From contig DCAA01000026.1 of assembly GCA_002311345.1 (NCBI GenBank), positions 214,829-278,828 on the forward strand: a stretch of 64,000 nucleotides of DNA. Direction: 5' to 3'. The position numbers were made by a program, and so were the translations under genes. This stretch comes from Planctomycetes bacterium UBA1146. GTDB lineage: Bacteria > Planctomycetota > UBA8108 > UBA1146. The notes under the pieces were generated by a model. That model had not been told where the DNA came from and did no database searches. It worked only from the letters and a program-made list of their open reading frames with translations. Shown piece after piece: positions 38,593 through 56,157 of this stretch (positions are counted from its first letter, which is position 1; each line of letters begins with the position of its first letter).

Positions 38593-38916
38593 GTGATGGA
38601 ATCGATGGAGTGCCCCCACTGCGGCGCTCTCGTTCCTTCTCACAGGATCTGTTGCGCCGGCTGTGGCAGTGACCTGGAAACCGGCTGGATGGATCCTGAA
38701 CAGATCGACTATAAGTCCCTCGACCTTCCTGAAGATGAACTCCCTTCCACTCCAGATAATGAACCAGGTCAGGCGATATCCCAATCAGTGGTAGTCCTGC
38801 TGGCTCTTTTCATCGCGGCCCCCCTGTCCTTCTTCATGTTCGATAACATCGCCCAGATTGTGGGAGTGTGGGTGATCCTGGGGCTTCTCATGGGGATCAA
38901 GAAGTCACGGGACTAG
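38593..38916 (+). CDS. Small zinc-ribbon plus two-TM membrane protein, hypothetical
   Basis: CPHCG…CAGCG zinc-ribbon motif then hydrophobic C-terminus; 107 aa. Confidence 0.5.
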   Translation: MMESMECPHCGALVPSHRICCAGCGSDLETGWMDPEQIDYKSLDLPEDELPSTPDNEPGQAISQSVVVLLALFIAAPLSFFMFDNIAQIVGVWVILGLLMGIKKSRD

Positions 38917-39846
38917 GTCAGCTGCTCGATCTGGGCCATGCCTACCCCCCTGTGTACCTCTCCAGGCAACGGCCACGATCCCGCAGACAACCAGTGGACT
39001 GCCGATCCAGAACACATCGGGAGGTGTCTCCCCCAACATCATCCAGACCAGCAAAGGAGCACCAGCCACCTCACCGAGGAATGCCGTGGAAACCACCGAT
39101 GGAGGCAGATAATTCAAGGCAGCATTGAGAGGAGTGTGCCCCAACAAGGTCGGAAAGAGAGCCAGCAGAAGCGCAAGGGACCATTCCTTGCCACTCTCGG
39201 GTGCATGCAGTTCTCCGGTCGTCAACAGGTACGCCGTCAAGAGCAAAGCAGCTACTCCGTATGCACGACAGGTGTAAATCGAAGTGGGAAGATCACGGCT
39301 GGCCGCCCTGCCCGCGAAGATGTATCCGACAAAGGCAAAGGAACCGATCAGCGCGAGAACGACACCCAGGGTCGGATCTCTTTGTTCGAAATCGCCAGCA
39401 CCATCACCTGCATTCAGTGCGAGTAGCATGGTCCCCGTCAAGGCGACCATCACTCCAAGAAGGCGTATTCCATCTGCGCGAGCCTGTTTTCGGGCGACTT
39501 CGATGACGTATACGATCACTGGATGGACATAGACCAGTACCACGGAGATCGCCACGGACAGATGGGCCAACGAAGCCATCCACGCACCGAAGTGCACCGC
39601 GAGACAGGCGCCCGAGATGAGAACTGCTCGCCCACTCGTTTTCAGGGCAACTCTATGGCCACCCCTTCTCGACAACATCCACAACACGGGAACTGCGATG
39701 GCGAGTCTACGCAGTGCAAGGTTCACCTCTTCGCTATCAGAGAGACGAATCCACAACGTCGATGTCGAGATCCCGATGATCCCGATGATCAGCAGCCACC
39801 AGACATGGCTCCCTACTGCCTTCAATTTCGGGACTTCCTGGTTCAA
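38905..39846 (-). CDS. EamA/DMT-family permease
   Basis: 10-TM, 313 aa, two EamA-like halves; last gene of the co-directional block. Confidence 0.8.
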   Translation of the reverse strand: MNQEVPKLKAVGSHVWWLLIIGIIGISTSTLWIRLSDSEEVNLALRRLAIAVPVLWMLSRRGGHRVALKTSGRAVLISGACLAVHFGAWMASLAHLSVAISVVLVYVHPVIVYVIEVARKQARADGIRLLGVMVALTGTMLLALNAGDGAGDFEQRDPTLGVVLALIGSFAFVGYIFAGRAASRDLPTSIYTCRAYGVAALLLTAYLLTTGELHAPESGKEWSLALLLALFPTLLGHTPLNAALNYLPPSVVSTAFLGEVAGAPLLVWMMLGETPPDVFWIGSPLVVCGIVAVAWRGTQGGRHGPDRAADLVP

Positions 39847-41423
39847 GAGTTACCGGACTCCTGCCAGTGACCATCGATCCTGCGCATTCCGGATGCTCCC
39901 GTGCGCAACTCATCCGGGAGTGCACCATCGGGGAATCCCTGCCAGCAAACGGGACGCAGGAACCTGTCCATCGCAGCGGAACCTACCGAGGTCCAGCGCG
40001 AATCGGTGGTCGCAGGCCAGGGACCGCCATGTTGCATCGCTTCCCCGACCTCGACCCCGGTGGGGAAGGAGTTGAAGACCAGTCGACCAGCACGGTCCTC
40101 GAGCAGATGCAGAAGGGGCTTCATCTGTGACAGTTCCTCCTCGGACGCGTGTACCGTCGCCGTCAATTGCCCCTCGAGAACTCGTGCAACTTCCAGAAAC
40201 TCCTCAGGAGAATTGCACTCAACAAGCAAGGCTCCCGGCCCGAACACCTCACTCTGCATCGCTGGGTCCGCGATGAAACTGGCGAAGTCTACTCTCAACA
40301 AGGAAGCCCCCGCCGCGCAGGAACCGTCGCCTGGGGGACCTCTTTCAATCACTTCGACCCCGCCTCGGGTAACGAGTTGCTCCACCGCATCGCGATAACC
40401 CTGCTGGATTCCCAGATGGAGCATCGTTCCAGCCGGTTCACTACAGAGCGACTGACTCAGTTCATCCCTGAACGCCGAGGCATTTTCGTCGGATACGATC
40501 ACGACGATCCCGGGACAGGTACAGAACTGTCCAACTCCAAGGCGAACGCTCGCTGCAAGCCCTTCGGCAATCTCCTGACGCCGGGTTTGCATCGCTTCCG
40601 GCAGGACGAAGACAGGATTGGCGCTTCCCATCTCGGCAAATACATCGACGGGAACCTCTCGATCTCTGGCCAATCGCCACAAAGCAATTCCTCCCGCACG
40701 AGAACCGGTGAAGGCGACGGCGCGAATACCCGGGTGCTGAACCAACTGTGTTCCCACATCAAAGGATTCCCCTTGAAGCAGGCTGAACATCCCTGCAGGG
40801 AATCCGACATCGCGAACCGCATCTTGCAATGCCCGACCTACCAGTTCACAAACACCCGGATGGGCCGGATGCCCTTTCGCAACGACAGGACAACCCGCCG
40901 CCCAGGCGCTGGCGGTATCTCCGCCTGCGACTCCGAAAGCCAACGGGAAATTACAGGCGCCAAATACCGCCACGGGACCGATGGCCCGCATCCCGAGGCG
41001 AAGATCCGGCCGAGGGATGGGCTGCCGGTCGGGAAGCGCGGTCTCGATGACGGGCTTCTGAAACGGACCTTCTCGTACCACCGAGGCAAAAAGTCGAAGT
41101 TGATGACAGGTGCGACCCCGCTCACCCTCGAAACGCGCCTGCGGAAGACCGGTTTCCTGCATTCCCCGGGCGGTGATCTCGGAGCCCAACGCTTCGATCC
41201 GTTCGGCAGCGGCTTCCAGTAATCTCGCCCGCTGCTCGGGATCGGACGCTGATCTGCTCTCGTGGACCGAGAGTGCCGCCAAGACAGCAACGTCGATGTT
41301 CTCGGCGGTTGCCTCCGCAAATGTAGGCTCCAGTTCGAGGCCACTGACCGGGTTGATCGCCCGGAGGGTTCCCTCTCCCTCGATCTCCTCACCTGCGATG
41401 AGGTGAACACCCTGGATGCTCAT
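39843..41423 (-). CDS. NAD(P)-dependent aldehyde dehydrogenase (alpha-ketoglutarate-semialdehyde dehydrogenase-like)
   Basis: ALDH family motifs (…FTGSRAGG…, …EMGSANPVFVL…), 526 aa. Confidence 0.85.
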   Translation of the reverse strand: MSIQGVHLIAGEEIEGEGTLRAINPVSGLELEPTFAEATAENIDVAVLAALSVHESRSASDPEQRARLLEAAAERIEALGSEITARGMQETGLPQARFEGERGRTCHQLRLFASVVREGPFQKPVIETALPDRQPIPRPDLRLGMRAIGPVAVFGACNFPLAFGVAGGDTASAWAAGCPVVAKGHPAHPGVCELVGRALQDAVRDVGFPAGMFSLLQGESFDVGTQLVQHPGIRAVAFTGSRAGGIALWRLARDREVPVDVFAEMGSANPVFVLPEAMQTRRQEIAEGLAASVRLGVGQFCTCPGIVVIVSDENASAFRDELSQSLCSEPAGTMLHLGIQQGYRDAVEQLVTRGGVEVIERGPPGDGSCAAGASLLRVDFASFIADPAMQSEVFGPGALLVECNSPEEFLEVARVLEGQLTATVHASEEELSQMKPLLHLLEDRAGRLVFNSFPTGVEVGEAMQHGGPWPATTDSRWTSVGSAAMDRFLRPVCWQGFPDGALPDELRTGASGMRRIDGHWQESGNS

Positions 41424-42415
41424 CGCTTCTCCTCCACGTCCTGGACCGGATTGGAGGCGAGTGATTCACGAATCACCTCGAGTGCCCCCGTTCGAAGCGC
41501 TCCTGCGGCAGGAAAGCGAGGAGCGCGTACTCTCTCCGATCCTCGCCCCACCTCCTGCTGGACCAGTTTGATCAGTTGCACGAACTCTGGCACACAATCG
41601 AGCCGCAACAGCGGCAAGAACCAGCTGTATATTTGATCCGCCTCGCGGGCCGCGGCTGGATCCTCGAGCCCTTGAACTGCTTTCTCGAACAGCAGCACTG
41701 ACTCTCTGGGCATTGCATTGACCAGACCGGCAATCCAACCCACTGCCCCCTGACGCACCGCTTCCACAACCATGTCATCGAGTCCCGCAAACAGGGCGAG
41801 TCGATCACCAACGATGGAATGTATTGCAGTGATACGACGAGCATCTCCACTCGAGTCCTTCACCGCACAAAGTCTCTCGCTTCGCTCGGCCAGACTTGCG
41901 ATCCAGCCCGGAGAAAAATCGACTCCGTATGCGATGGGATTGTTGTAGAGGATGCAGGGAAGATCTGTCGACTCGATCACCGCTTCGACGTGCGCCTCGA
42001 CTTCATGGAAGGGTCCCCTGTGGATGTAAGGGGGAAGAACCATCAATCCCCGAGCCCCCATCACCTTCGCGGTCGCGGCGAGTCTCCCCGCTTCCCGGGT
42101 AGAAGCTGCAGCGATACCAGGAATCACCGGAACCCGATCCCCGACCGCTCTGACAACAGTGTCGATGATCTTCTGCTTCTCATCGAATGAAAGAGTGGCT
42201 CCTTCGCCAAGCGATCCGCACGGGATGATTCCGGAGGCACCCTGTTGGACGAGCCAGTTGCAGTGCTCCGCGAGAAAAGCGTAATCCACATCATCCGCTT
42301 CGGTGAAGGGTGTGGTCACCGCTGGCATGACACCTGCCCAGGTGATGGAGGCGATGGGATTCGGATTCATAGATCTCCTTTGTGTGCAGGGGCACCCGAG
42401 GCCCGGATGGTGCAC
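41420..42415 (-). CDS. DapA/dihydrodipicolinate-synthase-family enzyme (candidate pyrroline-4-hydroxy-2-carboxylate deaminase or related lyase)
   Basis: Class I aldolase DapA-family sequence (…GVMPAVTTPF…GSLGEGATLS…). Start may be the internal Met (MNPNPIAS…). Confidence 0.75.
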   Translation of the reverse strand: MHHPGLGCPCTQRRSMNPNPIASITWAGVMPAVTTPFTEADDVDYAFLAEHCNWLVQQGASGIIPCGSLGEGATLSFDEKQKIIDTVVRAVGDRVPVIPGIAAASTREAGRLAATAKVMGARGLMVLPPYIHRGPFHEVEAHVEAVIESTDLPCILYNNPIAYGVDFSPGWIASLAERSERLCAVKDSSGDARRITAIHSIVGDRLALFAGLDDMVVEAVRQGAVGWIAGLVNAMPRESVLLFEKAVQGLEDPAAAREADQIYSWFLPLLRLDCVPEFVQLIKLVQQEVGRGSERVRAPRFPAAGALRTGALEVIRESLASNPVQDVEEKR

Positions 42416-42493: not shown

Positions 42494-43444
42494 CTAATTG
42501 CGAGATCTGCGTGTCACGAGCCAGAAGAGTACCGGGGCTCCGAGGGCTGCCGTCACAACTCCTACCGGAATCTCCCGCTGATCCACCAGAACCCTGCCGA
42601 TGGAATCGCAAAGTGGTAAGAAGACCGCGCCCAGCAACATCGAACCGGGAATCAGGATTCTCGGAGCAGCCCCGACAATTCTCCGAACGATGTGTGGACA
42701 GATCAGGCCGACGAACGCAATGGGACCACAGGTCGCTACACACGCCGCCACGCCGAGGGATGCAAAACCTAACCCGAGAGTTCGAATGCGAGGCACCTCG
42801 ACGCCACGAGTCCGAGCTCGCTCTGTCCCGGAAACGAGCACTTCCAGCGGTCGGATCAACCACACCAATCCAAGCAGTGTGATCACTACGAACGGGGTCA
42901 ACATCGCGATGCGATCCATTCCTACCATCGTCAAACTCCCCAGCGACCAGCGCAGGGCACTGAGTGACGTGATCTGGTCAACACCGAGTCGTAACGTTGA
43001 AGACACGGCACCGGTTGCTAACGTCAGGGCGATTCCTGCCAGCAAGACGTCTTCCGTGCGAGCACGATTTCTCGAGGCAACCGCGGAGATCACCAGCGTC
43101 ACCGTCAACGCACCGATGAAGGCCGCCGCTGGTAACAGTGGAAAACCGAGCAGAGTACTTCCACTGCCGAGGACCAGCGCTGCCAGAACTCCGAGAGTCG
43201 CTCCCGCCGTGGTCCCGACGGTGCTCGGGGTTGCCAGCGGATTCTGGAGCAGGATCTGCACAACTGCCCCCGCCGCAGAAAGAACCGCTCCGACCAGTGC
43301 CCCGGCCAGAGCCCGGGGAAGTCTCAGTTCGATGAGAATCAGATCACCGCGCTCTCCGGCCAGCGATGGCCCGACCCACGCGGTTGCCACCACGATGGCG
43401 GTACCCACCAGGGTCCATCCGAGCAGACGAAGCGGAGCCGTCAT
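42494..43444 (-). CDS. FecCD-family ABC transporter permease (metal-chelate/B12-type)
   Basis: BtuC/FepD-like 9-10 TM protein, 316 aa. Confidence 0.85.
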   Translation of the reverse strand: MTAPLRLLGWTLVGTAIVVATAWVGPSLAGERGDLILIELRLPRALAGALVGAVLSAAGAVVQILLQNPLATPSTVGTTAGATLGVLAALVLGSGSTLLGFPLLPAAAFIGALTVTLVISAVASRNRARTEDVLLAGIALTLATGAVSSTLRLGVDQITSLSALRWSLGSLTMVGMDRIAMLTPFVVITLLGLVWLIRPLEVLVSGTERARTRGVEVPRIRTLGLGFASLGVAACVATCGPIAFVGLICPHIVRRIVGAAPRILIPGSMLLGAVFLPLCDSIGRVLVDQREIPVGVVTAALGAPVLFWLVTRRSRN

Positions 43445-44223
43445 GACAGATCCTCCTCCATTGCCGGCAGCCAGAACTCATTGCCTGCCGATTCCATGCG
43501 ATGGAAGGGCACCCCATGAATCTGCTCGAGACCTTGCCCGAACTGGTCGTGATCGAGTTGCCCCTGCCAGACGATCTTCCCTTCGCGCAGGCCGATGACC
43601 CGAGTCCTGGATGCATCGACATGGCCCAGCAGATGAACGTCATGAAGTGCGACCAGTGCTGTAGTTCCCTCGCTGACCTTACCGTCGAGAAAACGTAGGG
43701 TTCTGGCTCGCCACACCGGATCGAGATGATTGGCGGGTTCATCGAGGAGCCAACATCGAGCCTGTTGGGCGACCATCGTCGCCAGTTCGACACGCTGACG
43801 CTCTCCACCGGAGAGTTCCGTCACATAGCGTCGAGCAAGATCTCCCGCTCCCGCCTCTGCCAGCGCGATGTGGGCTGCCTCGAGAGCCACGGCCCTCGGT
43901 TCGTCGAACCGATACCGAGATGCCGCCACTACATCTTCAACCAGCAGTGCATCGGTAGTGGATCCCTCCTGGGGAAGCCATGCCATCACACTCGCACGAT
44001 GTTTCGCACCCATCGATGAGAGTTGCTTTCCTTCCACCTGGACGGTGCCCGAATCGAGCGATACAAGTCCGAGCAGGGCCTTGATCAGCGTGGTTTTCCC
44101 TGAACCGTTAGCCCCGATGATGGCGATCATCTCCCCCTCTGCGACCTCGATGGAAACGTCATCGAGGATGGGGAGACCGCCGGCGAGAACCGTTGCGTTG
44201 TTGAGAGCCAGCAGTGCTGCCAT
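43441..44223 (-). CDS. ABC transporter ATP-binding protein (FepC/BtuD-like)
   Basis: Walker A GANGSGKTT, signature LSGGERQRV, Walker B LLDEP. Confidence 0.9.
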   Translation of the reverse strand: MAALLALNNATVLAGGLPILDDVSIEVAEGEMIAIIGANGSGKTTLIKALLGLVSLDSGTVQVEGKQLSSMGAKHRASVMAWLPQEGSTTDALLVEDVVAASRYRFDEPRAVALEAAHIALAEAGAGDLARRYVTELSGGERQRVELATMVAQQARCWLLDEPANHLDPVWRARTLRFLDGKVSEGTTALVALHDVHLLGHVDASRTRVIGLREGKIVWQGQLDHDQFGQGLEQIHGVPFHRMESAGNEFWLPAMEEDLS

Positions 44224-45101
44224 CAGGGATCTCCCCGCTCCAGTTGCTCGACCTGTTGGCGGATCGCTGCAACCAGTTCAATCAACTCCGGTCCCTCGTC
44301 GAGGACGCGGGGGTGAAATATGCGCGCTATTTTTTTCCGCCTGACCGCCTGGAGCCCCTCCAGCGCCGAGTATTCTCGCCTCAGTTGCTCGGACGTACCA
44401 CTCGATGCGCCATTCCCGGTGGCCAGATGCAAAATGATGTCGGGATCGATCTGGTGCAGACGCTCGAGGGACATCTGCGGGGTGCCTCGCATCGTTTCCG
44501 TGATGGCATTTCGACATCCTGCTGCTTCCAGCGCCGCTCCATGAATTGAGTTCGGTTTGATGACCCAGAGTCCACCCGACTCGTCGAAGGAATTCCCGAT
44601 GACCAGAAGAACCCGTGGCGACTCGGGGGTAACTTGCGAATGGAGGGCCTCTCGCATTCTCCGCGCCAGATCAACTGCAGCCTCCTGACGATTCACCAGA
44701 GATCCGATGATCTCGATGCTGTTTGCCACCTCCTCGACCGTGGACCAGGGAAGTTCCACCGGAGTTCCGACCCTCCTCAATTCATCGTGGGGTAATCCTG
44801 CTGCAGAACGAACCAGCAACAGACGAGCACCGGAGCGTAAGATCCGTTCCAGATCTGGTGCGAGAGCTGTCCCCCCTCGGGGAATTTCATCGGGGGCAAA
44901 ACAGTAATCACTCACCAGCGTGATGGACCCGGCAGCATCGAGAGCCTGCAATGTTGCAGTGATGCAGGGCGCCAATGAGGCGATCGGTTGACCCGCCTCC
45001 ACTGCGGGAATTCCCGACAGCGGTTGAGGTGCCAGCATCCCGGAGATGGTGATCGCCAGCGCTGCCAGGCTGCAGATGATGATGAGAGAGACACGGTCCA
45101 T
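44223..45101 (-). CDS. Periplasmic substrate-binding protein, cluster-A/TroA-BtuF-like (Peripla_BP_2)
   Basis: Signal peptide; class III SBP length and fold-type sequence; first gene of the three-gene ABC set. Confidence 0.7.
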   Translation of the reverse strand: MDRVSLIIICSLAALAITISGMLAPQPLSGIPAVEAGQPIASLAPCITATLQALDAAGSITLVSDYCFAPDEIPRGGTALAPDLERILRSGARLLLVRSAAGLPHDELRRVGTPVELPWSTVEEVANSIEIIGSLVNRQEAAVDLARRMREALHSQVTPESPRVLLVIGNSFDESGGLWVIKPNSIHGAALEAAGCRNAITETMRGTPQMSLERLHQIDPDIILHLATGNGASSGTSEQLRREYSALEGLQAVRRKKIARIFHPRVLDEGPELIELVAAIRQQVEQLERGDP

Positions 45102-45153: not shown

Positions 45154-46707
45154 CTAGTGTCCATCGGTCGAGGAGAGTTCCGTCCTTGGAGAAGGGCAGG
45201 TAGACCACGGTGGCCGCACCGAATCGTGCTCGAGGGTATCGCCGAGCGCCAGGATCGGCATGCAGACCCTCCCCTGGCAGGGACCCATGCCGATCCGGTG
45301 CTGGATCCGGGCCTGCCTCAGCGACCTGACCCCGCGGATGCTGGAAGAGACAACGTCCTCGCAGCGACAGACGATGACGTCTTCAACCACTGATCGGATC
45401 AAATCAGGACGCAGCGAATGAGTCCGCTCGAGGGCAATCCCCCAGCCTCGATGACGCCGTAGTTTCTGCATCAGTTGAAAAGAAGGAGTACCTGCCGCCG
45501 CCACGGTTCCTGCGATCTGTCCCGAGGCCAGAGCCGCCTCGCTTCCTGCGATACCGGTCGGCTCCCCGGCACACAGTACTCCCTCGACACTCGTGCGCTG
45601 GTAGCGGTCCACTTTCACTCGACCGTCCTTTTCGAGCACGCAACCGAGACCTTGTGCAACACGGGTTTCAGGAATAAGACCATAACCAACGGCCAGACCA
45701 TCGACCTCCTCGACTCGCGTTACGTTGCCGATCTTCAGATATACCTTCTCGACACGCTGGTTCCCCTGCGCCTTCACCGGCCAGCAAGATGAAATTTTCT
45801 CGACTCCCCGAAGAGTCTTCCACAGTTGCCACACTTCTCTCATCCGTTCGGGCGAAGCCAACAGGGAGAAAGCCAGTGGGACACGCTGAAGTAAGGATGC
45901 CTGCTCGGCGAGAATCACCTCGGCACCTTCCGAGACCGCTATCGCTGCGACCGCCAGAAGAAGTGGACCGGTACCTGCGATGACATATCGTTTCCCCTTC
46001 ACATCGAGGCCCCCTTTGATGAGGGATTGCAGTGCGCCGGCTCCCACCACCCCCGGAAGAGTCCAGCCGGGGAAGGGCAGAAATCGTTCACGGGCACCGG
46101 TGGCGACGATGATCTTCTGGCAACGGACGCGGGTACGGGCGCCGCTGATGACGGAGGCTGCCTCGAGCCATCCGACCTCCCCGTCGATCACCGTGGCTCC
46201 CTGCAACCGGCGAACTCCCGCTCGATCGGCTTTATCGATCCAGTATCGAACCACGGCAGGCATCTGGCCCCGATGGGCCCAGATCCGCCCTCCTGGCCGA
46301 GCAGACTCATCGATCAGCAGCACGTCCTGTCCCAGTTCTGCAGCGACACAGGCAGCGGAGAGACCTGCCGGTCCCGATCCGATGACGACCACACCGGTCT
46401 CATCTTCGACGATGTCGGTAGTTTCCACGGTGGGAAGGAGTTTCTTCTCGAGCGGACGCTCGGTGGTGATCTCCATCCCGTCTTGCACGGTGACGAGACA
46501 GGTTCTCACCAGGCGATGACCATCGACCATCGCTCGGCACTCATAGCAACTCCCCATGGCGCAAAGCACACCACGCTTGTCCCCACACGGAGAAGAACGG
46601 AACGCAACGATTCCTTCTCCCATCAAAGCGGCCGCCAGTTGAGTCCCGGATCGCACTTCGAGAACGGTACCGTCGACTCGGATGGATACTTTCTCCTGTG
46701 AGTTCAT
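45154..46707 (-). CDS. Opine-oxidase subunit A / HcnB-like FAD/NAD(P)-binding oxidoreductase with N-terminal [2Fe-2S] module and BFD-like [2Fe-2S] domain
   Basis: N-terminal Cys cluster (SPCGDKRGVLCAMGSCYEC), Rossmann GVVVIGSGPAGLSAA, BFD-like CRCEDV…CQGRVC. Confidence 0.8.
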   Translation of the reverse strand: MNSQEKVSIRVDGTVLEVRSGTQLAAALMGEGIVAFRSSPCGDKRGVLCAMGSCYECRAMVDGHRLVRTCLVTVQDGMEITTERPLEKKLLPTVETTDIVEDETGVVVIGSGPAGLSAACVAAELGQDVLLIDESARPGGRIWAHRGQMPAVVRYWIDKADRAGVRRLQGATVIDGEVGWLEAASVISGARTRVRCQKIIVATGARERFLPFPGWTLPGVVGAGALQSLIKGGLDVKGKRYVIAGTGPLLLAVAAIAVSEGAEVILAEQASLLQRVPLAFSLLASPERMREVWQLWKTLRGVEKISSCWPVKAQGNQRVEKVYLKIGNVTRVEEVDGLAVGYGLIPETRVAQGLGCVLEKDGRVKVDRYQRTSVEGVLCAGEPTGIAGSEAALASGQIAGTVAAAGTPSFQLMQKLRRHRGWGIALERTHSLRPDLIRSVVEDVIVCRCEDVVSSSIRGVRSLRQARIQHRIGMGPCQGRVCMPILALGDTLEHDSVRPPWSTCPSPRTELSSTDGH

Positions 46708-47882
46708 CGACCGACACCGGCCACAAAGAACTCGATCTTCTCTGCCGCCTCCCCGGCATCCATGATCGCCCCTGCTAGCGATGCGAGTCGCGCCACTTCA
46801 AGAAGGTGCTCACGATCACGCTCGAGATCGATGCGGTTCAACAGCATCGATTGTGACTGGTGGCCGTTGAGCCATGCGGTGAAGGCGAGGCCCACCTTGT
46901 AAAGATGGGTGGGTTCCTCGAAGACCTTTTGACCATATTTCTCACAGGGTTCCATCCAGCGTCTGTATCCGCTCACATCACCTGCCGCCAGGTGGCGAAG
47001 AGCGCGACCGGCAGGGATCGCGACTCCGTCGAGAACTCCGAGCAACGGATGGCTGAAGTCGCCATCAGGAATCTGACGATCTCCCAGCAACACGGTCCCT
47101 GTCGGTGCCTGACCATCTCCCTCGATGAGAGCACTGAAGTGCAAATCATCTCCGGTCAGCACGATCTGGCCGCGATCTCGACAGTGGCCACGAACCTGCA
47201 GCTCCAGATCGTGATCCAGTAGCGACATCTTGACCCCCCGGACCTTGTCCGGGTCGATCTCCAGGATCTTCCGCAGCGAATCGCCAGGGAAGTAGCCCTC
47301 CAGTTCGGCAAGAAACATCGGGCCGAGCCAGTGGATGAAGAGCGGTCCTTCACACTGCTCGAAGATGGAGCGATAGGTCGAGATGAACTGTTCCTCGTCA
47401 CTCCCCCACTGACACAGCCACGGCATCGGCAAGATGATGGGGATGCCGCCGACCTGCTGGATGATGCCAACCTGCTCGACCACTGCATCGATCAGGGTCG
47501 TGAGATCGGCGACATCGTCACACTGATCCGCTCCGGCACCGGCGATGAACCCCGTCTTCAGCTCCAGCGCACCGCACTCATCGATGAGCCGACGAGCGGT
47601 TGGCCAACCCAGTTCAAAACGCTGCGCGGTGTCCATCGCCTCGGCGATGCCAAATCCCTGTCGAGCCAGATGCTGGCGAAAGACCATCGTTTGGTTCCAG
47701 TCGACATGCTCGCTGACATTCGATGGTTTTGGATCATCGCTGTAGGAGTCCTTGAGGATGATATGCGCTGCAGCGTAGCCGATTCGTACCGATGCAGAGG
47801 TAACCGGTTCCGGCTCGCTGTCGAGATGCCCATCTTCGAGCAGAAGAGGTTCTCTCCCCGTGATAGGAAGTTCGATCCTCAT
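46704..47882 (-). CDS. DUF993-like TIM-barrel protein of unknown function
   Basis: …RIGYAAAHIILKDSY…DWNQTMVFRQHLARQGFGIAEAMDTAQR… recalls DUF993; start set at the internal ATG overlapping the upstream stop by 4 nt. Confidence 0.45.
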   Translation of the reverse strand: MRIELPITGREPLLLEDGHLDSEPEPVTSASVRIGYAAAHIILKDSYSDDPKPSNVSEHVDWNQTMVFRQHLARQGFGIAEAMDTAQRFELGWPTARRLIDECGALELKTGFIAGAGADQCDDVADLTTLIDAVVEQVGIIQQVGGIPIILPMPWLCQWGSDEEQFISTYRSIFEQCEGPLFIHWLGPMFLAELEGYFPGDSLRKILEIDPDKVRGVKMSLLDHDLELQVRGHCRDRGQIVLTGDDLHFSALIEGDGQAPTGTVLLGDRQIPDGDFSHPLLGVLDGVAIPAGRALRHLAAGDVSGYRRWMEPCEKYGQKVFEEPTHLYKVGLAFTAWLNGHQSQSMLLNRIDLERDREHLLEVARLASLAGAIMDAGEAAEKIEFFVAGVGR

Positions 47883-49312
47883 CCGGTGAGACCTGCCCAC
47901 CAGCCAGGAACCGCGGAAACCGTCACCCAGATCAGGAATGCACTCAGCACCAGTGTCGCCAGCAAGATGGTGCCCTGCCACAGCATCGCTTTCATCCCCT
48001 CAGGACGCTCGTCACCGAGATATGCCTTGGATCGCTGCATCTTGAGAATACCGATGTAGACCGCAGGAAGCAGAAATCCGGTCAGAATCGTCGTCGGTAC
48101 AGCGATCCAGATCCGAATATCTCCCCAGAAGAATGCCCCCAGAACTCCCGGCGTCGGCAGCAAACAAGCCAGGCGAAACTTGGTCGATCCAACCTTCCAG
48201 CCAAAGGCCTCACAGGCAGCGAAACCGCAGCAAACCATGTGCATCGTGATGCTACTGGTGACCATGGCCAGGAGCCCCAGATCGAACAGAATTCGAGAAG
48301 TCACGGTGCCGAAGGTCTGACCGAGGATCTTCGCCGCATCTACGGGAGCGAAGCCCTTGCCGGGGAAGGGGATTCCATCGGGTCCGAAGGTACTCGCTGC
48401 CGCCACCACGATGAGTGTCGTGGTCAACAGGTAAGGAACGAACATTCCGGCGAACAGATCAAACTTCGCCAGTGATCTGTGTTCCTTTCCCCATCCCCTC
48501 GCCAGTAACGAATACGGGTAGAGAAATACCATGTTGGCACCGATGGCGGCCGCCAACCCGGCCACCACCAGACTCAGGGCATCAATTGACTTGGTCTCGT
48601 CGCCTCCCGGAGTGAATGTCTCCCCAATCCCACCAGGGACAAACCCCGAGAAGAATGCGCCGGGATCACTGAGCCCCGTCTTCACGACAACGGCAGCGAA
48701 ACACAGCACGATCAGCCACACCATCACCTGCATGCTGCGCTCGAACAGTCTCAGTAGCACCGGCGACCGACCATAGGTGGTCGACCACATGACGGCCCAC
48801 GTCAGAACCAGCAGCCCCCCCATCCAGCGCGAAATTCCCGTTCCGCTGACCGCTCCGATGTCCTCGATCGCTGCCGATGCGAGGGCGTACTGGGCAAAGT
48901 GCCAGATGACACTCGACAGCACCGCTCCGGCGATGAAGGCAAAGGCGAAGAAGGGTCCGGCGTGTTCGCGAATTGCCGGCAATGGTCTTTTTCCGGTCGA
49001 CAGGGTCTGGTGCGCGACCGCCGACAGCACCGCCATTCCCAGCAGCATCGAAACCGGAGCAACCCACAACAGCCGGTAACCGAAAGCGCCACCGGCCAAC
49101 AAGGTTGCGGCCGCAGTACCGCCGCCGAGGGTCAATGCACTCTGCAGATAACCCGGGCCACCTCGCCTGAGATAAGACATCCATCTCCTGGCGACGGGGG
49201 CACTCTCGAGTGACGTGAGCCACTTCTTTTCCTCGGCCAACACCGCCGGATCTGGTGGCTGCACCATCGGAAGGACTACTGGCTCCTGCTGACCCGATTC
49301 TGATTCATTCAT
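47879..49312 (-). CDS. NRAMP-related membrane transporter lacking the canonical DPGN metal-binding motif
   Basis: NRAMP-like GPGYLQSALTLGGGTAAATLLAGGAFGY (compare [23 protein letters not shown]); 11-12 TM, 477 aa. Confidence 0.65.
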   Translation of the reverse strand: MNESESGQQEPVVLPMVQPPDPAVLAEEKKWLTSLESAPVARRWMSYLRRGGPGYLQSALTLGGGTAAATLLAGGAFGYRLLWVAPVSMLLGMAVLSAVAHQTLSTGKRPLPAIREHAGPFFAFAFIAGAVLSSVIWHFAQYALASAAIEDIGAVSGTGISRWMGGLLVLTWAVMWSTTYGRSPVLLRLFERSMQVMVWLIVLCFAAVVVKTGLSDPGAFFSGFVPGGIGETFTPGGDETKSIDALSLVVAGLAAAIGANMVFLYPYSLLARGWGKEHRSLAKFDLFAGMFVPYLLTTTLIVVAAASTFGPDGIPFPGKGFAPVDAAKILGQTFGTVTSRILFDLGLLAMVTSSITMHMVCCGFAACEAFGWKVGSTKFRLACLLPTPGVLGAFFWGDIRIWIAVPTTILTGFLLPAVYIGILKMQRSKAYLGDERPEGMKAMLWQGTILLATLVLSAFLIWVTVSAVPGWWAGLTG

Positions 49313-50769
49313 CCATTCTTCCCCTCCCGGGAACTCTGTTTGGCACTCGCTTTGGCAATTTTCAGATCAGCAGCAGCGGGGTGATTCTTGTAATGATCAT
49401 CAAGCGGAAAACAGCCGCTCAGAAGGCCATTGCGTGGCGCCGTTGTGCAATCGCTGAATGTTCTGCAGATGAGTTTTTTTGGCATCTGTCGTCCGTGAAT
49501 GACATCTCTTGGCAAGTCTGGATAAGAAAGCATCGAACGACCGAGACCGATCACATCCTGGTAACCGTTGCGGATCTCGTGCTGGGCCACCGCAGGGAGC
49601 CACTCCTGCAGATAACTCCAACCGGTTCCGACCAGACCGAGATCGGGGAATTCGCTACGAATCCGTCTCGCCGCCCGCAAGTGCTGGGCCACTCCAACGA
49701 GCGGATCTTCCGGCGGTAGATATCCATCACTGGGTGGATACTGCGCAGGTCGCTGCCGGTGGGGACAATAGTACGGAGATCCGATGGTCAGGTTGAGCCA
49801 ATCGATACCGGCCTGCTGGAGCATCGAGACCAGTTGCAACGGTTCATCCCAGCATGGCTGCAGCGGGTCTTGCGGATCGATGCCGAAACCATGTTCGTAG
49901 GATTCGCTGCCGGGCCAGTCCGGCTCGCCAGCCCCATCAGTGGACTCGCGGAAGGGCACCACATCGGTCACCGACAATCGGACCCCGATGCCGAGACCGG
50001 GAACAGCACTCCTTACCTGTGCGATCAAATCCCTCAGGAAGCGACTTCGGCCCTCGAGATCTCCGCCGTAGCGACCCGGGCGAGCACGAGCGGATAACAA
50101 CTCATGGATCAGATATCCGTGACAGGCCTTGAGATCGACGAAGTCAAACCCGGTATCGAGGGCGCATCTGGCCACCTCGACGTAACGCTGTGCGATCGTT
50201 TCCAGATCGGTATCGGAGAGGATCTGGTCGGATGTCGCACCGACCCGGGCATCGAGTATCGGATGCTCGAAGGCGATAAGAGGAGAGGCCCCCTGGCGGT
50301 TCGGCCGTGACCACCTTCCCGAGTGCGTCAGTTGCAATCCGGTGATCGACTGCCTGGGCGCTTCTTCTCCGATGCCCTCGCGACCGCTGGCAAGAGCGGA
50401 TCGGAGGGATTCCAGTGCGCGACAGGTATTGTCTCGATCCCGATGAAACAGTTGATTCGGATTTGCACGCCCATCCTCACGCACGGCGAACGCCTCACCG
50501 CCCCAGATCAGAGCAGCACCACTCTGGCCGAAGCGTCGCCAGCGACGCAGTGTCTCCTCGGAAGGAAAACCATCGGACTGTGCATCCCAGCCCTCCATGG
50601 GATGAACGGCGAAACGGTTCGACAGTGCCCAACCCCCCTTCTCGATGGCCGATCCCAGTGGACCTGGCGACTCGACCTCGTCATCGAGATCGAGTTCGGG
50701 GGCAATCTCCTTCCAACGAGCGCGAAAGGCATCGACATCTCTATAGCGGTTAGGAGAGACGATCTTCAT
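49309..50769 (-). CDS. Old Yellow Enzyme-family NADH:flavin oxidoreductase
   Basis: Old Yellow Enzyme (OYE) TIM-barrel motifs (…LKACHGYLIHELLS…); start at internal ATG (MKIVSP…) overlapping the upstream stop as ATGA. Confidence 0.8.
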   Translation of the reverse strand: MKIVSPNRYRDVDAFRARWKEIAPELDLDDEVESPGPLGSAIEKGGWALSNRFAVHPMEGWDAQSDGFPSEETLRRWRRFGQSGAALIWGGEAFAVREDGRANPNQLFHRDRDNTCRALESLRSALASGREGIGEEAPRQSITGLQLTHSGRWSRPNRQGASPLIAFEHPILDARVGATSDQILSDTDLETIAQRYVEVARCALDTGFDFVDLKACHGYLIHELLSARARPGRYGGDLEGRSRFLRDLIAQVRSAVPGLGIGVRLSVTDVVPFRESTDGAGEPDWPGSESYEHGFGIDPQDPLQPCWDEPLQLVSMLQQAGIDWLNLTIGSPYYCPHRQRPAQYPPSDGYLPPEDPLVGVAQHLRAARRIRSEFPDLGLVGTGWSYLQEWLPAVAQHEIRNGYQDVIGLGRSMLSYPDLPRDVIHGRQMPKKLICRTFSDCTTAPRNGLLSGCFPLDDHYKNHPAAADLKIAKASAKQSSREGKNG

Positions 50770-52241: not shown

Positions 52242-53360
52242 TCAATTCCTGCCGGGATCCCACGGCGTGGGGTCGATGACAGGCTCCTCGTCAAAAATTG
52301 AAGCAGCGATCAGTTCCGCTGCTGCAGGTGCCTGGGTGATTCCAAGGCCCTCGAAACCGGCAGCGACCCACAGCGAGGAAGATCCAGGAAGGAGTCCGAT
52401 CAATGGACGACCATCGGCGCTGGCAGCACGAGTCCCGGTCCACTTGCGTATGATGGGCAGTCCTGCGATTCCTGGGATGAAGCGTTCAGCACGGTGGATG
52501 ATCCTCTCCATCAGATCGGAATCCAAGCCGCCTGCCCTCCTGGGGCGACGCGATGATCCGATGCAGAGTTGATCGGTCGATCTTGGCAATACCGCGCAGG
52601 CAACTGCCTCATCCTCTTCACCCTGGGCTCCCTTCTGGTAACCGGCCTCCACCACATGGTGAGAGATGATACAGGTTCCGCGCGTGGTGATCGCCAGGTG
52701 CCCTTCTCTCGGGTGAATGGGAATGCAATTTTCTGACCCAGGGCACAGTTCGAGTGCATCGAGACCGGATGCAATCACGATGGCATCGGCGACCATGCTC
52801 TCTCCGTGGGCGAATACAACCCGGTTTTCCTCTACCGATGTCACCCGGGTTCTGCATCGGATCGTCGCTCCGAGTCTACGGGACTCCGCGACGAGAGCTG
52901 CAGCGGCAGCGGGAGCATAGAGAACCCCGTCCTGGGGCAACTGAAGTCCACCGATGAGATCTCGTGACAGAGCAGGTTCTGCATCGAAGAGTGCGGCTCC
53001 CTCGAGGAGGTGCGCTGTCACACCGGCAGTTGCCAACCTATCAGCAGCTCGCGATAGATTATCGAGGCCGTGCTGGTCTTCGGCCATCCAGAGTGTGCCG
53101 GATTCGATGAAACCATCATCTGGATTCATCGGGGGCGCATCTTCACGCCACAATTTCCTACCCAGAAGACACAACTGAAGCCCGGCGGGCTCTGCATCGT
53201 TGACCACGATGTGGCCCATCCCCGCTGCAGTGGCTCCGTGCAACCCGGGGCCATCTCCGGCTTCGATGATCTCTACCTGGCCCCCACGTCTGACCAGACT
53301 CCTGGCACAGGCGGCACCCACAATGCCTCCTCCGACCACGATGATCCGCAGAGTGCTCAT
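52242..53360 (-). CDS. FAD-dependent oxidoreductase, DAO family (opine oxidase subunit B / D-amino-acid dehydrogenase-like)
   Basis: N-terminal Rossmann IIVVGGGIVGAACA; 372 aa. Confidence 0.8.
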   Translation of the reverse strand: MSTLRIIVVGGGIVGAACARSLVRRGGQVEIIEAGDGPGLHGATAAGMGHIVVNDAEPAGLQLCLLGRKLWREDAPPMNPDDGFIESGTLWMAEDQHGLDNLSRAADRLATAGVTAHLLEGAALFDAEPALSRDLIGGLQLPQDGVLYAPAAAAALVAESRRLGATIRCRTRVTSVEENRVVFAHGESMVADAIVIASGLDALELCPGSENCIPIHPREGHLAITTRGTCIISHHVVEAGYQKGAQGEEDEAVACAVLPRSTDQLCIGSSRRPRRAGGLDSDLMERIIHRAERFIPGIAGLPIIRKWTGTRAASADGRPLIGLLPGSSSLWVAAGFEGLGITQAPAAAELIAASIFDEEPVIDPTPWDPGRN

Positions 53361-54511
53361 CTGACTTTCTCCATCGATGTGGCCGGGTTGGCTTCGCCAC
53401 TCTCACCGATGGCAACTTCCCGGGCGGCGCGATACACCTCCAGTGTTTCGCGAGCGCAACGTTGCCAGTTGAACGAGGTCGCATATTCGCGGGCAGCAGC
53501 GCGGTTCGAATCTTGTTGCGAAAGCGCCCGAAGCAGTGCCTGCGCGATCGAAAGTGGATCATCCGGTTGGCAAGTCTCGGCGAATCCACCCGCGATCTCC
53601 GGTGCAGCACCTTGACCGGCTATCACGACGGGACAACCGCATCCCATCGCCTCGAGGATCGGCATCCCGAAACCCTCGTAAAAACTGCAATACAACAACG
53701 CGCGAGATGATGAATATAGTGCCGGGAGCACATCATCCCCCACCCATCCAACGTGATGGATCAGGCCTTTGCCTTCCTCCTCGATGAAGGACTGCAACTC
53801 TTCGCCTCCAAAGGTGAGGTCTCCCGCGAGAACGAGAGGAACATCTCCAAGATCAGCAGCCATGAATCCGCGAATGATCCCGGGAATATTCTTCCGATGG
53901 GAAAGATCTCCGACGTACAGGATCGCTCGCTCTGGAATCCCTTTCTGCCTCAGGATATCCGCGCTCATCTCGGGTGGCATCGGGGAAAAGATGCGGTCAA
54001 CCCCGTGGTACACCTTCACGACCTTCTCTTCGGGACAATCGATGTGACTGAGGAAGTCGTGACGTGTCGTCTCGCTCACAGCGATGATCCGATGACAATC
54101 GCGGGCGATGGCACGATATCCCTCGATCATTCGATCCCTGAAACCGGTGGTCGAGATCGGTTCTTTGCCCAACAGGTCCGGAACCAGGTGCATTACATCG
54201 TGAAGGGTCGCCACCCGCGCGGCTCGCCAGCGTGGGACCCGCGAATCAGTGACATGAACTACATCCGGCCTCATCAATGGAGGCCACCACGGCTCCTGGA
54301 TCCAGAATCTAGAACAACTGCCTACCTCGAGACGGTGACGGTGGTGACGCAGATGAGAAAAACGGGTTCCGAGCGCGATGTCGACATCGAGATCGGACAG
54401 TGATCTGGCGAGTTGTGCGGTATATCTGCCGATACCCGTCGGTCGGGGCGTACAGGCAGCAGTGGCGTCTATGGCGATACGCAAGGAACCTCCAGGCGGA
54501 GGATAGGTCAC
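53357..54511 (-). CDS. GT4-family glycosyltransferase
   Basis: GT-B fold with C-terminal EX7E-type region (…YCSFYEGFGMPILEAMGCGCPVV…). Confidence 0.8.
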   Translation of the reverse strand: MTYPPPGGSLRIAIDATAACTPRPTGIGRYTAQLARSLSDLDVDIALGTRFSHLRHHRHRLEVGSCSRFWIQEPWWPPLMRPDVVHVTDSRVPRWRAARVATLHDVMHLVPDLLGKEPISTTGFRDRMIEGYRAIARDCHRIIAVSETTRHDFLSHIDCPEEKVVKVYHGVDRIFSPMPPEMSADILRQKGIPERAILYVGDLSHRKNIPGIIRGFMAADLGDVPLVLAGDLTFGGEELQSFIEEEGKGLIHHVGWVGDDVLPALYSSSRALLYCSFYEGFGMPILEAMGCGCPVVIAGQGAAPEIAGGFAETCQPDDPLSIAQALLRALSQQDSNRAAAREYATSFNWQRCARETLEVYRAAREVAIGESGEANPATSMEKVR

Positions 54512-54517
54512 CAGTGG

Positions 54518-55471
54518 CTACAGGTCGATGCCATGGCGAAAAGGATCGTCTTCCATGAAGTGAAGCGTTCCTTCGCCAGTGAGGTAAGCACTACCCCGGA
54601 TCGTCGGATAGACCCCATCCCCGTCCGCCACAAAGGTGCCCGAGAACCGGGTTCCGAGAACTCCCATCTGGATCCACGGGGCACCCTCCTGTAACTGCCC
54701 ACGGGCATGCAAGCAGGCCAGAGTCGCACTGGTTCCGGTTCCACAGGGTGAACGATCCCATTCCTTGCCGGGACAGAGAACGAAGGATCGCACCCCTACC
54801 TGCTGTTTTGAAGGCAGTGATTGATGCAACTCGATATGGTCGATCGCGGCCCCGGAAGTGCCCGTTACTCCATCGGCCTCGAGAGCGGTACGGATCTCAC
54901 AGCAAAGGTCGATGAGTTGGTCAATTCGAGAAGGTTCGATGGGAACGCCAGGACTTTCGGTGATGAAGAACCAGTTCCCCCCCCAGGCAACATCTCCGAT
55001 GAGTTCGATGCCTTCATGGGTGGTGACCGATACATCCGACATTTCCCGGAAACTTCTGACGTTACGAACCGAAACATCTCCTTCTGGATGCAAGATGGTC
55101 TCGATGACCCCCGCCGGAGTCTCCAGTGTGCAACCGCCCACCTCGATCTTGCCGATGTGGTGTAATGCTTTCACCACACCGATGGCACCGTGACCACACA
55201 TAGCGAGGGTGCCTACGTTGTTGAAAAAGATCACTCCCGCATCACATTCCGCGATGGACGAATCGAGTAACAAAGCGGCGACCATCGCCTCGTGTCCACG
55301 CGGCTCTCGGACGATCCCCGCTCTGAGGGCATCGTGATCCCTGGTGAGCACATCGCGGCAATCAGAGACGCTCTCCCCCTCGAGATGGGGGAAACCATCG
55401 ATGATGATGCGCGTCGGTTCACCAGCAGTGTGGGTATCGATGTAGCGGATATCCGCGGCAGCCATACTCAT
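54518..55471 (-). CDS. Proline-racemase-family enzyme with both catalytic Cys (4-hydroxyproline 2-epimerase / proline racemase type)
   Basis: …LAMCGHGAIG… and …DRSPCGTGTSA… Cys-Cys pair; 317 aa. Confidence 0.85.
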   Translation of the reverse strand: MSMAAADIRYIDTHTAGEPTRIIIDGFPHLEGESVSDCRDVLTRDHDALRAGIVREPRGHEAMVAALLLDSSIAECDAGVIFFNNVGTLAMCGHGAIGVVKALHHIGKIEVGGCTLETPAGVIETILHPEGDVSVRNVRSFREMSDVSVTTHEGIELIGDVAWGGNWFFITESPGVPIEPSRIDQLIDLCCEIRTALEADGVTGTSGAAIDHIELHQSLPSKQQVGVRSFVLCPGKEWDRSPCGTGTSATLACLHARGQLQEGAPWIQMGVLGTRFSGTFVADGDGVYPTIRGSAYLTGEGTLHFMEDDPFRHGIDL

Positions 55472-56157
55472 CTGACCTGAGCAACCAGAAGCCCCTGACG
55501 CATCGGAAGGATCGTTCCCTGCATACGGGGGTGTTCGGAGACCATCTTGTTGAAGTTATCGATGGCAACACGGGATGGCTCCTCGTCGATGGAGCCGGGA
55601 ACCCAGCCTTTCCCCGCCCCGAGAACGTTGTCGGCCACGATCAGCCCACCACTTCTGACGAGCGGAAATCCAGCCTCCAGGTAACCGGGATACTCGGTCT
55701 TGATGGCATCGATGAAGAGCAGATCACAACTCTCGACTCCCAGTTCCTCGACCAGATCCGGTAACACCTTCAAGCCCTCGCCAACCCGGATATCGATCCG
55801 ATGTTCCTTCGCCCGCGAGATCGCTCCCCGGGCAAAGTCAGCATGGTGGGGATCGGACTCGATGGTGACGATCTTGCCCTCGGGAGAAAGCCCCCTCGCC
55901 AGCGCCAGAGCACTGGCTCCGCCAAGAGTTCCCACCTCGACGATCAGGTGAGCTCCTCCCTCACGGCTCATCGTAGCCAGCAGTGACAACCAGCGTCCCA
56001 CCGCTGCCCCGACCGAGATGGCAGGTAATCCGGCTTCTACCGCAGCATCATGTTCTCGTGACCAGCGCTCACGATCATCACTGAAGAGTTGCTCGATGTA
56101 CTCGTGAGTGGCTTCCCAACGCTGCTGGGACATCCCCTCGGAGGTAGAATCCGCCAT
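55468..56157 (-). CDS. Class I SAM-dependent O-methyltransferase (family 3, caffeoyl-CoA OMT-like)
   Basis: …LIVEVGTLGGASALALA… (motif I) and …DLLFIDA…; 229 aa. Confidence 0.8.
   Translation of the reverse strand: MADSTSEGMSQQRWEATHEYIEQLFSDDRERWSREHDAAVEAGLPAISVGAAVGRWLSLLATMSREGGAHLIVEVGTLGGASALALARGLSPEGKIVTIESDPHHADFARGAISRAKEHRIDIRVGEGLKVLPDLVEELGVESCDLLFIDAIKTEYPGYLEAGFPLVRSGGLIVADNVLGAGKGWVPGSIDEEPSRVAIDNFNKMVSEHPRMQGTILPMRQGLLVAQVR

Follow-up and report, generated by a model that had tools for sequence, protein, structure and literature searches.

The NRAMPs (SLC11) are a textbook family of metal-selective transporters. The Pfam family PF01566 comprises the Slc11 family together with an 'outgroup' and the NRMTs (PMC9606685), and the Asp of transmembrane helix 1 (TM1) is retained in canonical NRAMPs, in the NRMTs (signature DxxG-TxxA/T), and in the NRATs (DxxN-AxxT), and the site of EleNRMT is expanded, its ion being bound for the most part with its water shell (PMC8806188). 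Further Nramp-related groups, termed 'NRMT-like' and 'G-motif', lack DPGN, MPH, and the proton-pathway residues and are paraphyletic to the canonical Nramps (2026 preprint, PMC12873925), and, with the exceptions of EleNRMT and of MntG, a hypothesised importer of Mn2+, these groups are described as 'entirely uncharacterized' (PMC12873925; also PMC13060092). Two NRAMP-family proteins that are 50% identical to one another, YcsG of B. subtilis and PxpT of C. glutamicum, are encoded in operons for 5-oxoprolinase; growth on 5-oxoproline (5-OP) genetically requires PxpT, which 'likely mediates 5-OP uptake', although its authors could not exclude metal transport (PMC13274462). Here we describe an NRAMP-like protein encoded on the minus strand at positions 47879-49312 of a stretch of 64,000 nucleotides (the window) from contig DCAA01000026.1 of Planctomycetes bacterium UBA1146. 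The protein has the NRAMP fold and belongs to a large clade in which the metal-ligating residues are replaced. Its gene is translated together with those of three enzymes, the four forming a conserved module, and its cargo is probably not a bare metal ion.

The open reading frame begins with an ATG and encodes 477 residues, which match PF01566 with an E-value of 1.1e-26 (94.1 bits, gathering score 29.8) over profile positions 2-352 of 357, and which miss all of the NCBIfam NRAMP/MntH cut-offs (44.7 vs 50, 33.9 vs 430, and 30.3 vs 272.5). Searching solved structures with the single sequence (phmmer) returns EleNRMT (PDB 7qia) at 1.5e-8 and the Bacteroides fragilis Nramp (BfraNramp, PDB 10ky) at 3e-5, with plant NRAT matched weakly, and a search with the family profile returns EleNRMT and BfraNramp at 8e-12 to 1e-11, NRAT at 7e-6, and DraNramp at 8e-5. 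An AF2 model built on 35 family members (pLDDT 81, pTM 0.84) shows helix breaks in TM1 at Leu62-Gly63 and in TM6 at residues 262-266. The top 26 Foldseek matches of this model in the PDB are all NRAMP-family structures (DraNramp, EleNRMT, BfraNramp, the YcsG model 9a52, DMT1, NRAMP1, and NRAT), the best being DraNramp 6d91 with a target-normalised TM-score of 0.84. Other LeuT-fold carriers (NKCC1, LAT1, ApcT, AdiC, and CodB) are matched with E-values several orders of magnitude worse than those of the NRAMPs, and membership of an unrelated branch of the APC superfamily and a true TM1 elsewhere in the protein are both excluded. The gene thus encodes an 11-TM secondary transporter of the NRAMP (SLC11, LeuT-type) fold.

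Residues 52-79 of the protein read GPGYLQSALTLGGGTAAATLLAGGAFGY, with the LGGGT motif encoded at 49115-49129. Alignments were made with phmmer to EleNRMT and BfraNramp, with MAFFT to E. coli K-12 MntH, and by profile to four solved NRAMPs, and because the TM1 register is the same in every one of them, with YIDPGN of E. coli MntH lying over TLGGGT, the replacement of Asp by Gly63 and of Asn by Thr66 (D56 and N59 of DraNramp) holds. In TM6, A227 of DraNramp is kept as Ala255/Ala256, with M230 and H232 corresponding to Gly258 and Asn260, whilst D131 and E134 of TM3 correspond to His138 and Gln141, and Q378 of TM10 to Thr408. Of the proton-pathway charges tested (Asp131, Glu134, Arg352, and Arg353), only the equivalent of the TM9 residue Arg353 is kept (Arg380), with Phe379 at the position of Arg352. 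The retained TM6 alanine is one that acts through its backbone in metal binding, and the putative site is lined by Gly, Thr, and Asn, without an acidic or thioether ligand. Alignment to EleNRMT gives GxxT in TM1 and AxxG in TM6 of the NRAMP-like protein, in place of the DxxG and TxxA/T of the NRMTs, and alignment to 8ont likewise lacks the NRAT signature DxxN-AxxT, the protein being bacterial and not from a plant.

These results bear on an earlier note, which had described the protein as NRAMP-related, with the Asp and Asn of DPGN replaced by Gly and Thr. The relationship is borne out by Pfam, profile search, the AF2 model, and Foldseek; the segment taken for TM1 is the true TM1, with no DPGN elsewhere in the protein; and all alignments agree on Gly63 and Thr66, with real MntH/Nramp sequences giving the same outcome as the comparator string of the note. 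Where it had proposed checking for loss of the metal-site D, N, A, and M, the first, second, and last are indeed gone, whereas the alanine is retained, and the TM6 His is lost in addition.

The substitutions are not confined to this protein. A search of 5.8 billion proteins yields >1,100 relatives, with the best 120 being 49-99% identical, coming mainly from Planctomycetota metagenome-assembled genomes (MAGs), and carrying the annotations 'divalent metal cation transporter' or 'manganese transport protein'. Matches at 98-99% identity show the window to be evidently that of a marine Planctomycetota MAG in the UBA1146 lineage. Relatives are encoded by 418 stretches of species-representative genomes, spanning Planctomycetota and Acidobacteriota (Thermoanaerobaculia/'Multivorans', Holophagales, and Vicinamibacterales) and including the cultured Engelhardtia mirabilis Pla133, whose homologue stands outside the module described below, and tblastn against 72,556 plasmids gives just two weak haloarchaeal matches. 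Across 78 genome sequences, near-invariant motifs are found in TM1 (GPGY[LM]QS.[LM]TLG[GS]G[TS]), at the end of TM2 (HQTLSTGxRP), in TM3 (S..WHF[AP]QY), and in TM6 (GL.AA.G.NM.FLYPY[ST]), and the TM1 residues Gly52, Pro53, Gly54, Tyr55, Gln57, Thr61, Leu62, Gly63, and Gly65 are invariant in the family. A profile search of 1.84 billion cluster representatives returns 225 clusters at 50% identity with E<=1e-30, 618 with E<=1e-10, and 1,329 with E<=1e-3, with the full-length 50%-identity representatives among the matches listed keeping TLG[GAS]G[ST] and AVG[IV]NM[TV]FL.PY[ST]. The NRAMP-like protein is therefore no one-off but one of many Nramp-related proteins that form a clade coherent in sequence, and as judged from alignment every Mn2+/Fe2+-ligating residue of the canonical NRAMPs is replaced across this clade by Gly, Thr, or Asn.

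The gene stands between those of an OYE-like flavin mononucleotide (FMN) oxidoreductase and a DUF993 TIM-barrel protein, with a divergent enolase-superfamily enzyme (ENOL) ahead of the former (Table 1). These belong to a compact cluster of 15 minus-strand genes running from 56157 to 38905 (~17 kb), the junctions of which include eight 4-nt ATGA start/stop overlaps and one TGATG; the ATGA overlaps include ENOL/OYE, OYE/NRAMP-like, NRAMP-like/DUF993, and DUF993/FeS-flavoprotein, and they indicate co-transcription and translational coupling. Neighbourhoods were compared across 80 genome loci, with genes chosen by their conservation between loci. Among NRAMP-like homologues at least 65% identical and with enough flanking sequence, the gene immediately upstream is OYE in 15/15 and that immediately downstream is DUF993 in 18/18, the corresponding counts among homologues 49-64% identical being 13/55 and 15/55, such that the module persists to ~50% identity, with ENOL usually preceding OYE. 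The hydroxyproline-like genes and ABC importer of the window are found with the closest relatives only (11-14 loci). In one planctomycete further removed from the window, an AraC-type regulator precedes the four genes, which make up an operon by themselves; another planctomycete locus has OYE, the NRAMP-like gene, and DUF993 only, and some other planctomycete copies of the NRAMP-like gene stand alone. In a Thermoanaerobaculia locus (L084, homologue P0088) a sugar-type ABC transporter (ATPase, BPD_transp_2 permease, and Peripla_BP_1) lies 20 nt downstream. As ENOL, OYE, the NRAMP-like gene, and DUF993 stay together across loci while the hydroxyproline-like genes do not, these four are the functional unit, and the NRAMP-like gene is co-translated with the three enzymes in a conserved four-gene module.

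Residues 64, 66, 259, and 408 were considered as specificity determinants co-varying with the module and were rejected, since their signal follows phylogeny (Planctomycetota vs Acidobacteriota), as does that of dozens of other alignment columns. At metagenome loci L096 and L097, which carry the clade member P0244, a second Nramp-family gene of 683 aa lies a few genes away and adjoins URO-D-like and Gfo/Idh/MocA/DUF6807 genes, and some genomes hold several clade paralogues per neighbourhood. A distant relative of 652 aa (P0480) is annotated as a fusion of NRAMP with Methyltransf_3, which may be real or an assembly artefact.

Enzymes of the enolase superfamily act on a Mg2+-bound carboxylate substrate by removing its alpha-proton, and the presence of ENOL therefore implies that the substrate of the module carries a carboxylate. 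ENOL itself has no Pfam or NCBIfam match, with its relatives carrying PF13378 and its homologues numbering >3,000. Foldseek places its AF2 model (pLDDT 90) about equally close to mandelate racemase, muconate-lactonising enzymes, talarate/galactarate dehydratases, dipeptide epimerases, and N-succinylamino-acid racemases, with target-normalised TM-scores of ~0.75 and identities of 11-18% throughout. The family invariants are KxK, the metal ligands Asp265, Glu300, and Asp327 (D/E/D), and Lys350/Lys353, and on the evidence of the model ENOL would seem to represent a deep branch of the superfamily that is as yet uncharacterised. The OYE-like protein matches Pfam Oxidored_FMN at 1.5e-23 and ene-reductases of the PDB at 1e-17. 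The DUF993 protein matches Pfam DUF993 at 4e-81 and the uncharacterised protein 4dnh at 1e-46, and a literature search for DUF993 found nothing. Its homologues are annotated as DHDPS-family by PGAP, and those on alphaproteobacterial plasmids (35% identity) lie in CoA and organic-acid clusters with TRAP transporters, from which a function is not settled.

A comparison of 80 metagenomic loci found with an ENOL profile reveals what accompanies the enzyme when the transporter is missing. Behind each ENOL at least 41% identical to the window protein come OYE, the NRAMP-like gene, and DUF993, in so far as the contig is long enough, with the NRAMP-like gene seen at 9 loci. A sister ENOL group, 36-40% identical and largely from other environments, has neither OYE nor the NRAMP-like gene, with DUF993 lying 2-3 kb from ENOL in 10 loci and with recurrent DHDPS-like, xylose-isomerase-like TIM-barrel, and Gfo/Idh/MocA genes. 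The importers of this group are of the TctABC tripartite tricarboxylate type in 11 loci and of the NMT1-type ABC class in 23, and in 0 of the 80 loci does the NRAMP-like gene occur together with either. Where the NRAMP-like gene is absent, predicted organic-anion importers of classical type are thus present, a pattern that provides the strongest computational support for an organic-solute role. Furthermore, the presence of organic-solute importers but no metal transporter in the sister clusters argues that ENOL needs no dedicated metal supply.

In the window the module is embedded in genes of catabolic type, and the earlier note's placing of the transporter within a catabolic operon is upheld by the tight packing of the cluster and by its gene families. 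Bacterial L-hydroxyproline clusters comprise a hydroxyproline 2-epimerase, a D-hydroxyproline dehydrogenase of DAO type that may or may not have FeS/FAD subunits, a DHDPS-type deaminase, and an alpha-ketoglutarate semialdehyde dehydrogenase, and can include an enolase-superfamily hydroxyproline dehydratase/epimerase (PMC5144071). All four of these family types are present in the window, with the epimerase being the best match. As the NCBIfam scores of the hydroxyproline-type genes all lie below their equivalog cut-offs (346 vs 450; 96 vs 750), the cluster is best described as resembling hydroxyproline catabolism by gene content, and is labelled 'hydroxyproline-like' and not proven. No LamB/YcsF- or KipI/KipA-type genes, by which a pxpABC operon would be recognised, occur either in the cluster of the window or at those homologue loci that were examined.

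Some features of the cluster and its surroundings are unusual. Importers of the Peripla_BP_2/FecCD type are normally tied to siderophore, haem, or cobalamin uptake, yet here one sits within an apparent imino-acid catabolic operon, and the GT4 glycosyltransferase and O-methyltransferase genes are translationally coupled to catabolic genes, which is odd for a purely degradative pathway. The G+C content of the window is ~0.53-0.56 over positions 1-40000, with a local peak of 0.59-0.60 at 14-18 kb, and ~0.57-0.61 from ~40 kb onwards, the rise at ~40 kb coinciding with the start of the cluster. Rfam yields just one match in the window that exceeds its gathering score, a tRNA gene at 9971-10057 on the plus strand.

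Table 1. Genes of the cluster and signatures of the NRAMP-like protein, with positions in the window.
Feature	Position	Strand	Remarks
O-methyltransferase (Methyltransf_3)	55468-56157	-	Upstream part of the cluster
Proline-racemase family	54518-55471	-	Pfam 1.6e-84; best match 4-hydroxyproline epimerase, NCBIfam 346 bits vs cut-off 450
GT4 glycosyltransferase	53357-54511	-	Stop overlaps DAO start
DAO-family FAD oxidoreductase	52242-53360	-	Candidate beta-like subunit of D-hydroxyproline / D-amino-acid dehydrogenase
Divergent enolase-superfamily enzyme (ENOL), 480 aa	50766-52208	-	Stop overlaps OYE start (ATGA)
OYE-like FMN oxidoreductase, 486 aa from ATG at 50769	49309-50769	-	Stop overlaps NRAMP-like start (ATGA)
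NRAMP-like ('TLGGG' G-motif clade, Nramp-related) secondary transporter	47879-49312	-	Pfam Nramp, AF2 model and Foldseek; 11 predicted TM helices
TM1 signature GPGYLQSALTLGGGTA (residues 52-67)	49112-49159	-	LGGGT in place of (I/M)DPGN; alignments, model
End-of-TM2 signature HQTLSTGKRP (residues 101-110)	48983-49012	-	Near-invariant in family; no canonical NRAMP counterpart
TM6 signature GLAAAIGANMVFLYPYS (residues 252-268)	48509-48559	-	AAIGAN in place of AxxMPH; helix broken at 262-266 in model
DUF993 TIM-barrel protein, 392 aa from ATG at 47882	46704-47882	-	Start overlaps NRAMP-like stop (ATGA)
2Fe-2S (Fer2_4) + Pyr_redox_2 flavoprotein	45154-46707	-	Candidate fused alpha/gamma-like subunit of heteromeric imino-acid/opine dehydrogenase; start overlaps DUF993 stop
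ABC importer	42494-45101	-	Peripla_BP_2 binding protein 44223-45101; ATPase 43441-44223; FecCD permease 42494-43444
DHDPS-family protein	41420-42415	-	Candidate pyrroline-4-hydroxy-2-carboxylate deaminase
Aldehyde dehydrogenase	39843-41423	-	Candidate 2,5-dioxovalerate / alpha-ketoglutarate semialdehyde dehydrogenase
EamA-family transporter	38905-39846	-	Last cluster gene

Members of the clade also occur fused to a second domain. Four of the 50%-identity representatives (P0257, P0263, P0288, and P0312, of 762-842 aa, at loci L093-L095 and L100) carry a C-terminal ApbE domain (PF02424, E 1e-63 to 1e-81), and in a search with P0263 both domains are present in 63 of the best 120 clusters at 90% identity, mostly from Hydrogenedentota and Planctomycetota MAGs, with unfused close relatives also existing. 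ApbE is the flavin adenine dinucleotide (FAD):protein FMN transferase, which acts outside the membrane, and a topology of 11 TM helices with a cytoplasmic N-terminus, as predicted from the model and from the established topology of NRAMPs, would place the fused ApbE domain on that side. Compared with the transporter half of one such fusion, the window protein shows 39% identity across 446 aa and the same TM1 and TM6 motifs, and no fusion of this kind occurs in the window. The loci of the fusions and of distant clade members show no consistent neighbours beyond a divergent DeoC-family aldolase and a Gfo/Idh/MocA oxidoreductase, and no description of NRAMP-ApbE fusions was found in the searched literature.

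Whilst the fold, the clade, the lost ligands, and the operon are secure, the function is what we infer from them. The substitutions in TM1 and TM6 suggest that metal transport would have been lost, as the earlier note had predicted, and an organic substrate is plausible by analogy with PxpT. LeuT-fold transporters build their pocket from main-chain hydrogen-bond partners where TM1 and TM6 are unwound, and in the amino-acid carriers among them side chains of TM3 and TM8 help to hold the substrate (PMC5809530). We tentatively propose, at somewhat less than an even chance, that the NRAMP-like protein imports the carboxylate or imino-acid substrate of the module, bound via main-chain atoms of its unwound TM1 and TM6. 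In the window the likeliest such substrate would be an imino acid related to proline or hydroxyproline, or a compound derived from one, and it would bind through its carboxylate and polar groups to backbone amides of the Gly-rich unwound segments of TM1 (TLGGGT) and TM6 (GANMVFLYPY). The pocket lining, as predicted from the alignments, would receive further contributions from conserved hydroxyl, amide, and aromatic side chains, namely those of Gln57, Thr61, Thr66, Gln102-Thr106, His138, Gln141, Tyr142, Asn260, and Thr407/Thr408, with H+ and Na+ as candidate coupling ions.

Several observations weigh against import of the pathway substrate, the main one being that the site motifs are near-invariant across the clade in varied contexts (the module, sugar-type clusters, stand-alone genes, and ApbE fusions), for which a general substrate such as an ion or a cofactor fits better than a pathway-specific one. 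About half of the homologues 49-64% identical lack the module, notably those of Acidobacteriota, and the window operon already has an ABC importer and an EamA transporter. The displacement compares ENOL groups that are only 36-40% identical and possibly act on different substrates, and the ENOL model lies equally far from racemases, cycloisomerases, and acid-sugar dehydratases, leaving the substrate class as imino acid or acid sugar. Additionally, YcsG, the sole G-motif relative to have been studied, has been renamed MntG and claimed as a Mn2+ importer because its over-expression was reported to raise cellular Mn2+ (PMC10448178), and this G-motif protein of a catabolic operon warns, by analogy, that motif loss is no proof of the loss of metal transport. 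The same phenotype favours a supply of divalent metal, in which largely hydrated Mg2+ or Mn2+ would pass via backbone carbonyls and Thr, Asn, and Gln residues of an enlarged site to feed metal-dependent enzymes such as ENOL, much as EleNRMT holds its ion. This appears unlikely, even though the nearest solved relatives by sequence (EleNRMT and BfraNramp) are metal transporters, the TM9 Arg is kept, and an invariant site in varied contexts suits a general substrate. ENOL and ApbE are both Mg2+-dependent, but Mg2+ is abundant in sea water. The TM1 Asp, common to the NRAMPs, NRMTs, and NRATs, is invariantly Gly in the clade, with no substitute carboxylate in TM1, TM3, or TM6 and with the Met and His also gone, and the sister ENOL/DUF993 clusters pair their enzymes with organic-solute importers and no metal transporter. 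Riboswitches for Mn, Mg, and FMN (M-box, yybP-ykoY, and FMN) were found neither in the window nor in 14 homologue loci, a weakly informative result that speaks against metal and flavin supply alike.

The ApbE fusions raise the possibility that the clade moves FAD, FMN, or riboflavin, with the fusions delivering FAD to ApbE or taking FMN from it and the operon copy supplying OYE. We consider this quite unlikely as it stands. In its favour are the frequency of the fusions, the likeness of their transporter half to the window protein, and the extracytoplasmic position that the predicted topology would give to ApbE, together with a site lined by Gly and conserved aromatics (Trp137, Phe139, Tyr142, Phe263, Tyr265, and Tyr267) and with the adjacency and overlap of the OYE-like and NRAMP-like genes, both of which are lost together in the sister ENOL clusters. 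However, FAD is a large molecule to fit into a LeuT-fold site, and catabolic operons induced by their substrate rarely need to import a cofactor by themselves. No genes for flavinylation targets adjoin the fused genes at the loci seen, the joining of the two domains may instead stem from membrane anchoring or from a dependence on Mg2+, and a precedent was not found in the searched literature. More doubtful again is the fuller picture in which the fusions are self-contained machines that pass FAD to an extracytoplasmic flavin transferase or recover FMN, with the window copy exchanging flavin with OYE. If true, flavin would be the first non-metal cofactor substrate of the SLC11 fold, and a possible answer to how FAD reaches ApbE in bacteria without a known FAD exporter. 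Least probable of the readings weighed here is co-transport, in which the carboxylate of the substrate would fill the space left by the change of Asp to Gly and complete the coordination of a divalent cation carried with it. Under this reading the Mn2+ phenotype of YcsG/MntG (PMC10448178) and the need for PxpT in growth on 5-oxoproline (PMC13274462) would no longer conflict, and both a carboxylate pathway substrate and an NRAMP scaffold that is kept while its single acidic ligand is lost would be accommodated, but the reading is purely inferential, with YcsG and PxpT probably lying in a different G-motif group. The probability that remains belongs to something else altogether.

Import of an organic substrate of the module, as proposed above, can be approached at this locus, which makes the clade experimentally accessible: the signature is sharp, the operon enzymes can be screened for their substrate, and the hydroxyproline-like setting narrows the candidates. 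The sister clusters with carboxylate importers in the place of the transporter provide a further lead, as do the ApbE fusions, which are independent and testable. If the SLC11 fold does carry an organic acid or a cofactor, thousands of annotations as 'divalent metal cation transporter' or 'manganese transport protein' would read differently.

Compared with the canonical NRAMP/MntH proteins (DraNramp, E. coli MntH, BfraNramp, and DMT1), the window protein has the same fold, TM arrangement, and unwound TM1 and TM6, and shares the flanking TM1 residues GPG...AG..FGY..LWV and the TM9 Arg (Arg380, R353 of DraNramp), whereas the identity is ~20%, and extra N-terminal helices and the invariant HQTLSTGxRP are its own. 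EleNRMT, the best solved relative by single-sequence search, resembles it in a site enlarged by small residues and in the absence of most proton-pathway charges, but the NRMTs keep the TM1 Asp and have Thr in TM6, where the window protein has Gly in TM1 and Ala and Gly in TM6. The LeuT-fold amino-acid transporters (LeuT, AdiC, ApcT, and LAT1) give weaker but significant structural matches with no detectable sequence relationship, which makes the likeness an analogy of mechanism and not one of membership. YcsG and PxpT likewise lack the canonical motif and lie in a catabolic operon, for a proline-like cyclic compound in their case; however, the YcsG model 9a52 ranks only tenth in Foldseek with just 16% identity, YcsG is absent from the sequence-search matches, perhaps because the copy searched does not contain it, and its operon partners are pxpABC and not ENOL, OYE, and DUF993. 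The window protein fits the description of the G-motif groups, by which it was matched, in having Gly in the TM1 motif and in lacking DPGN, MPH, and the proton-pathway residues. The class of Nramp-related proteins without the metal motif is already known, if uncharacterised, and a single genetic precedent for an organic substrate comes from what is probably another subgroup, whilst the papers on the G-motif groups and the PF01566 outgroup make no mention of the ENOL-OYE-DUF993 operon or of the ApbE fusions. What is new here is the clade signature, the ENOL-OYE-NRAMP-like-DUF993 operon in its hydroxyproline-like setting, the mutual exclusion with TctABC and ABC importers, and the fusions to ApbE.

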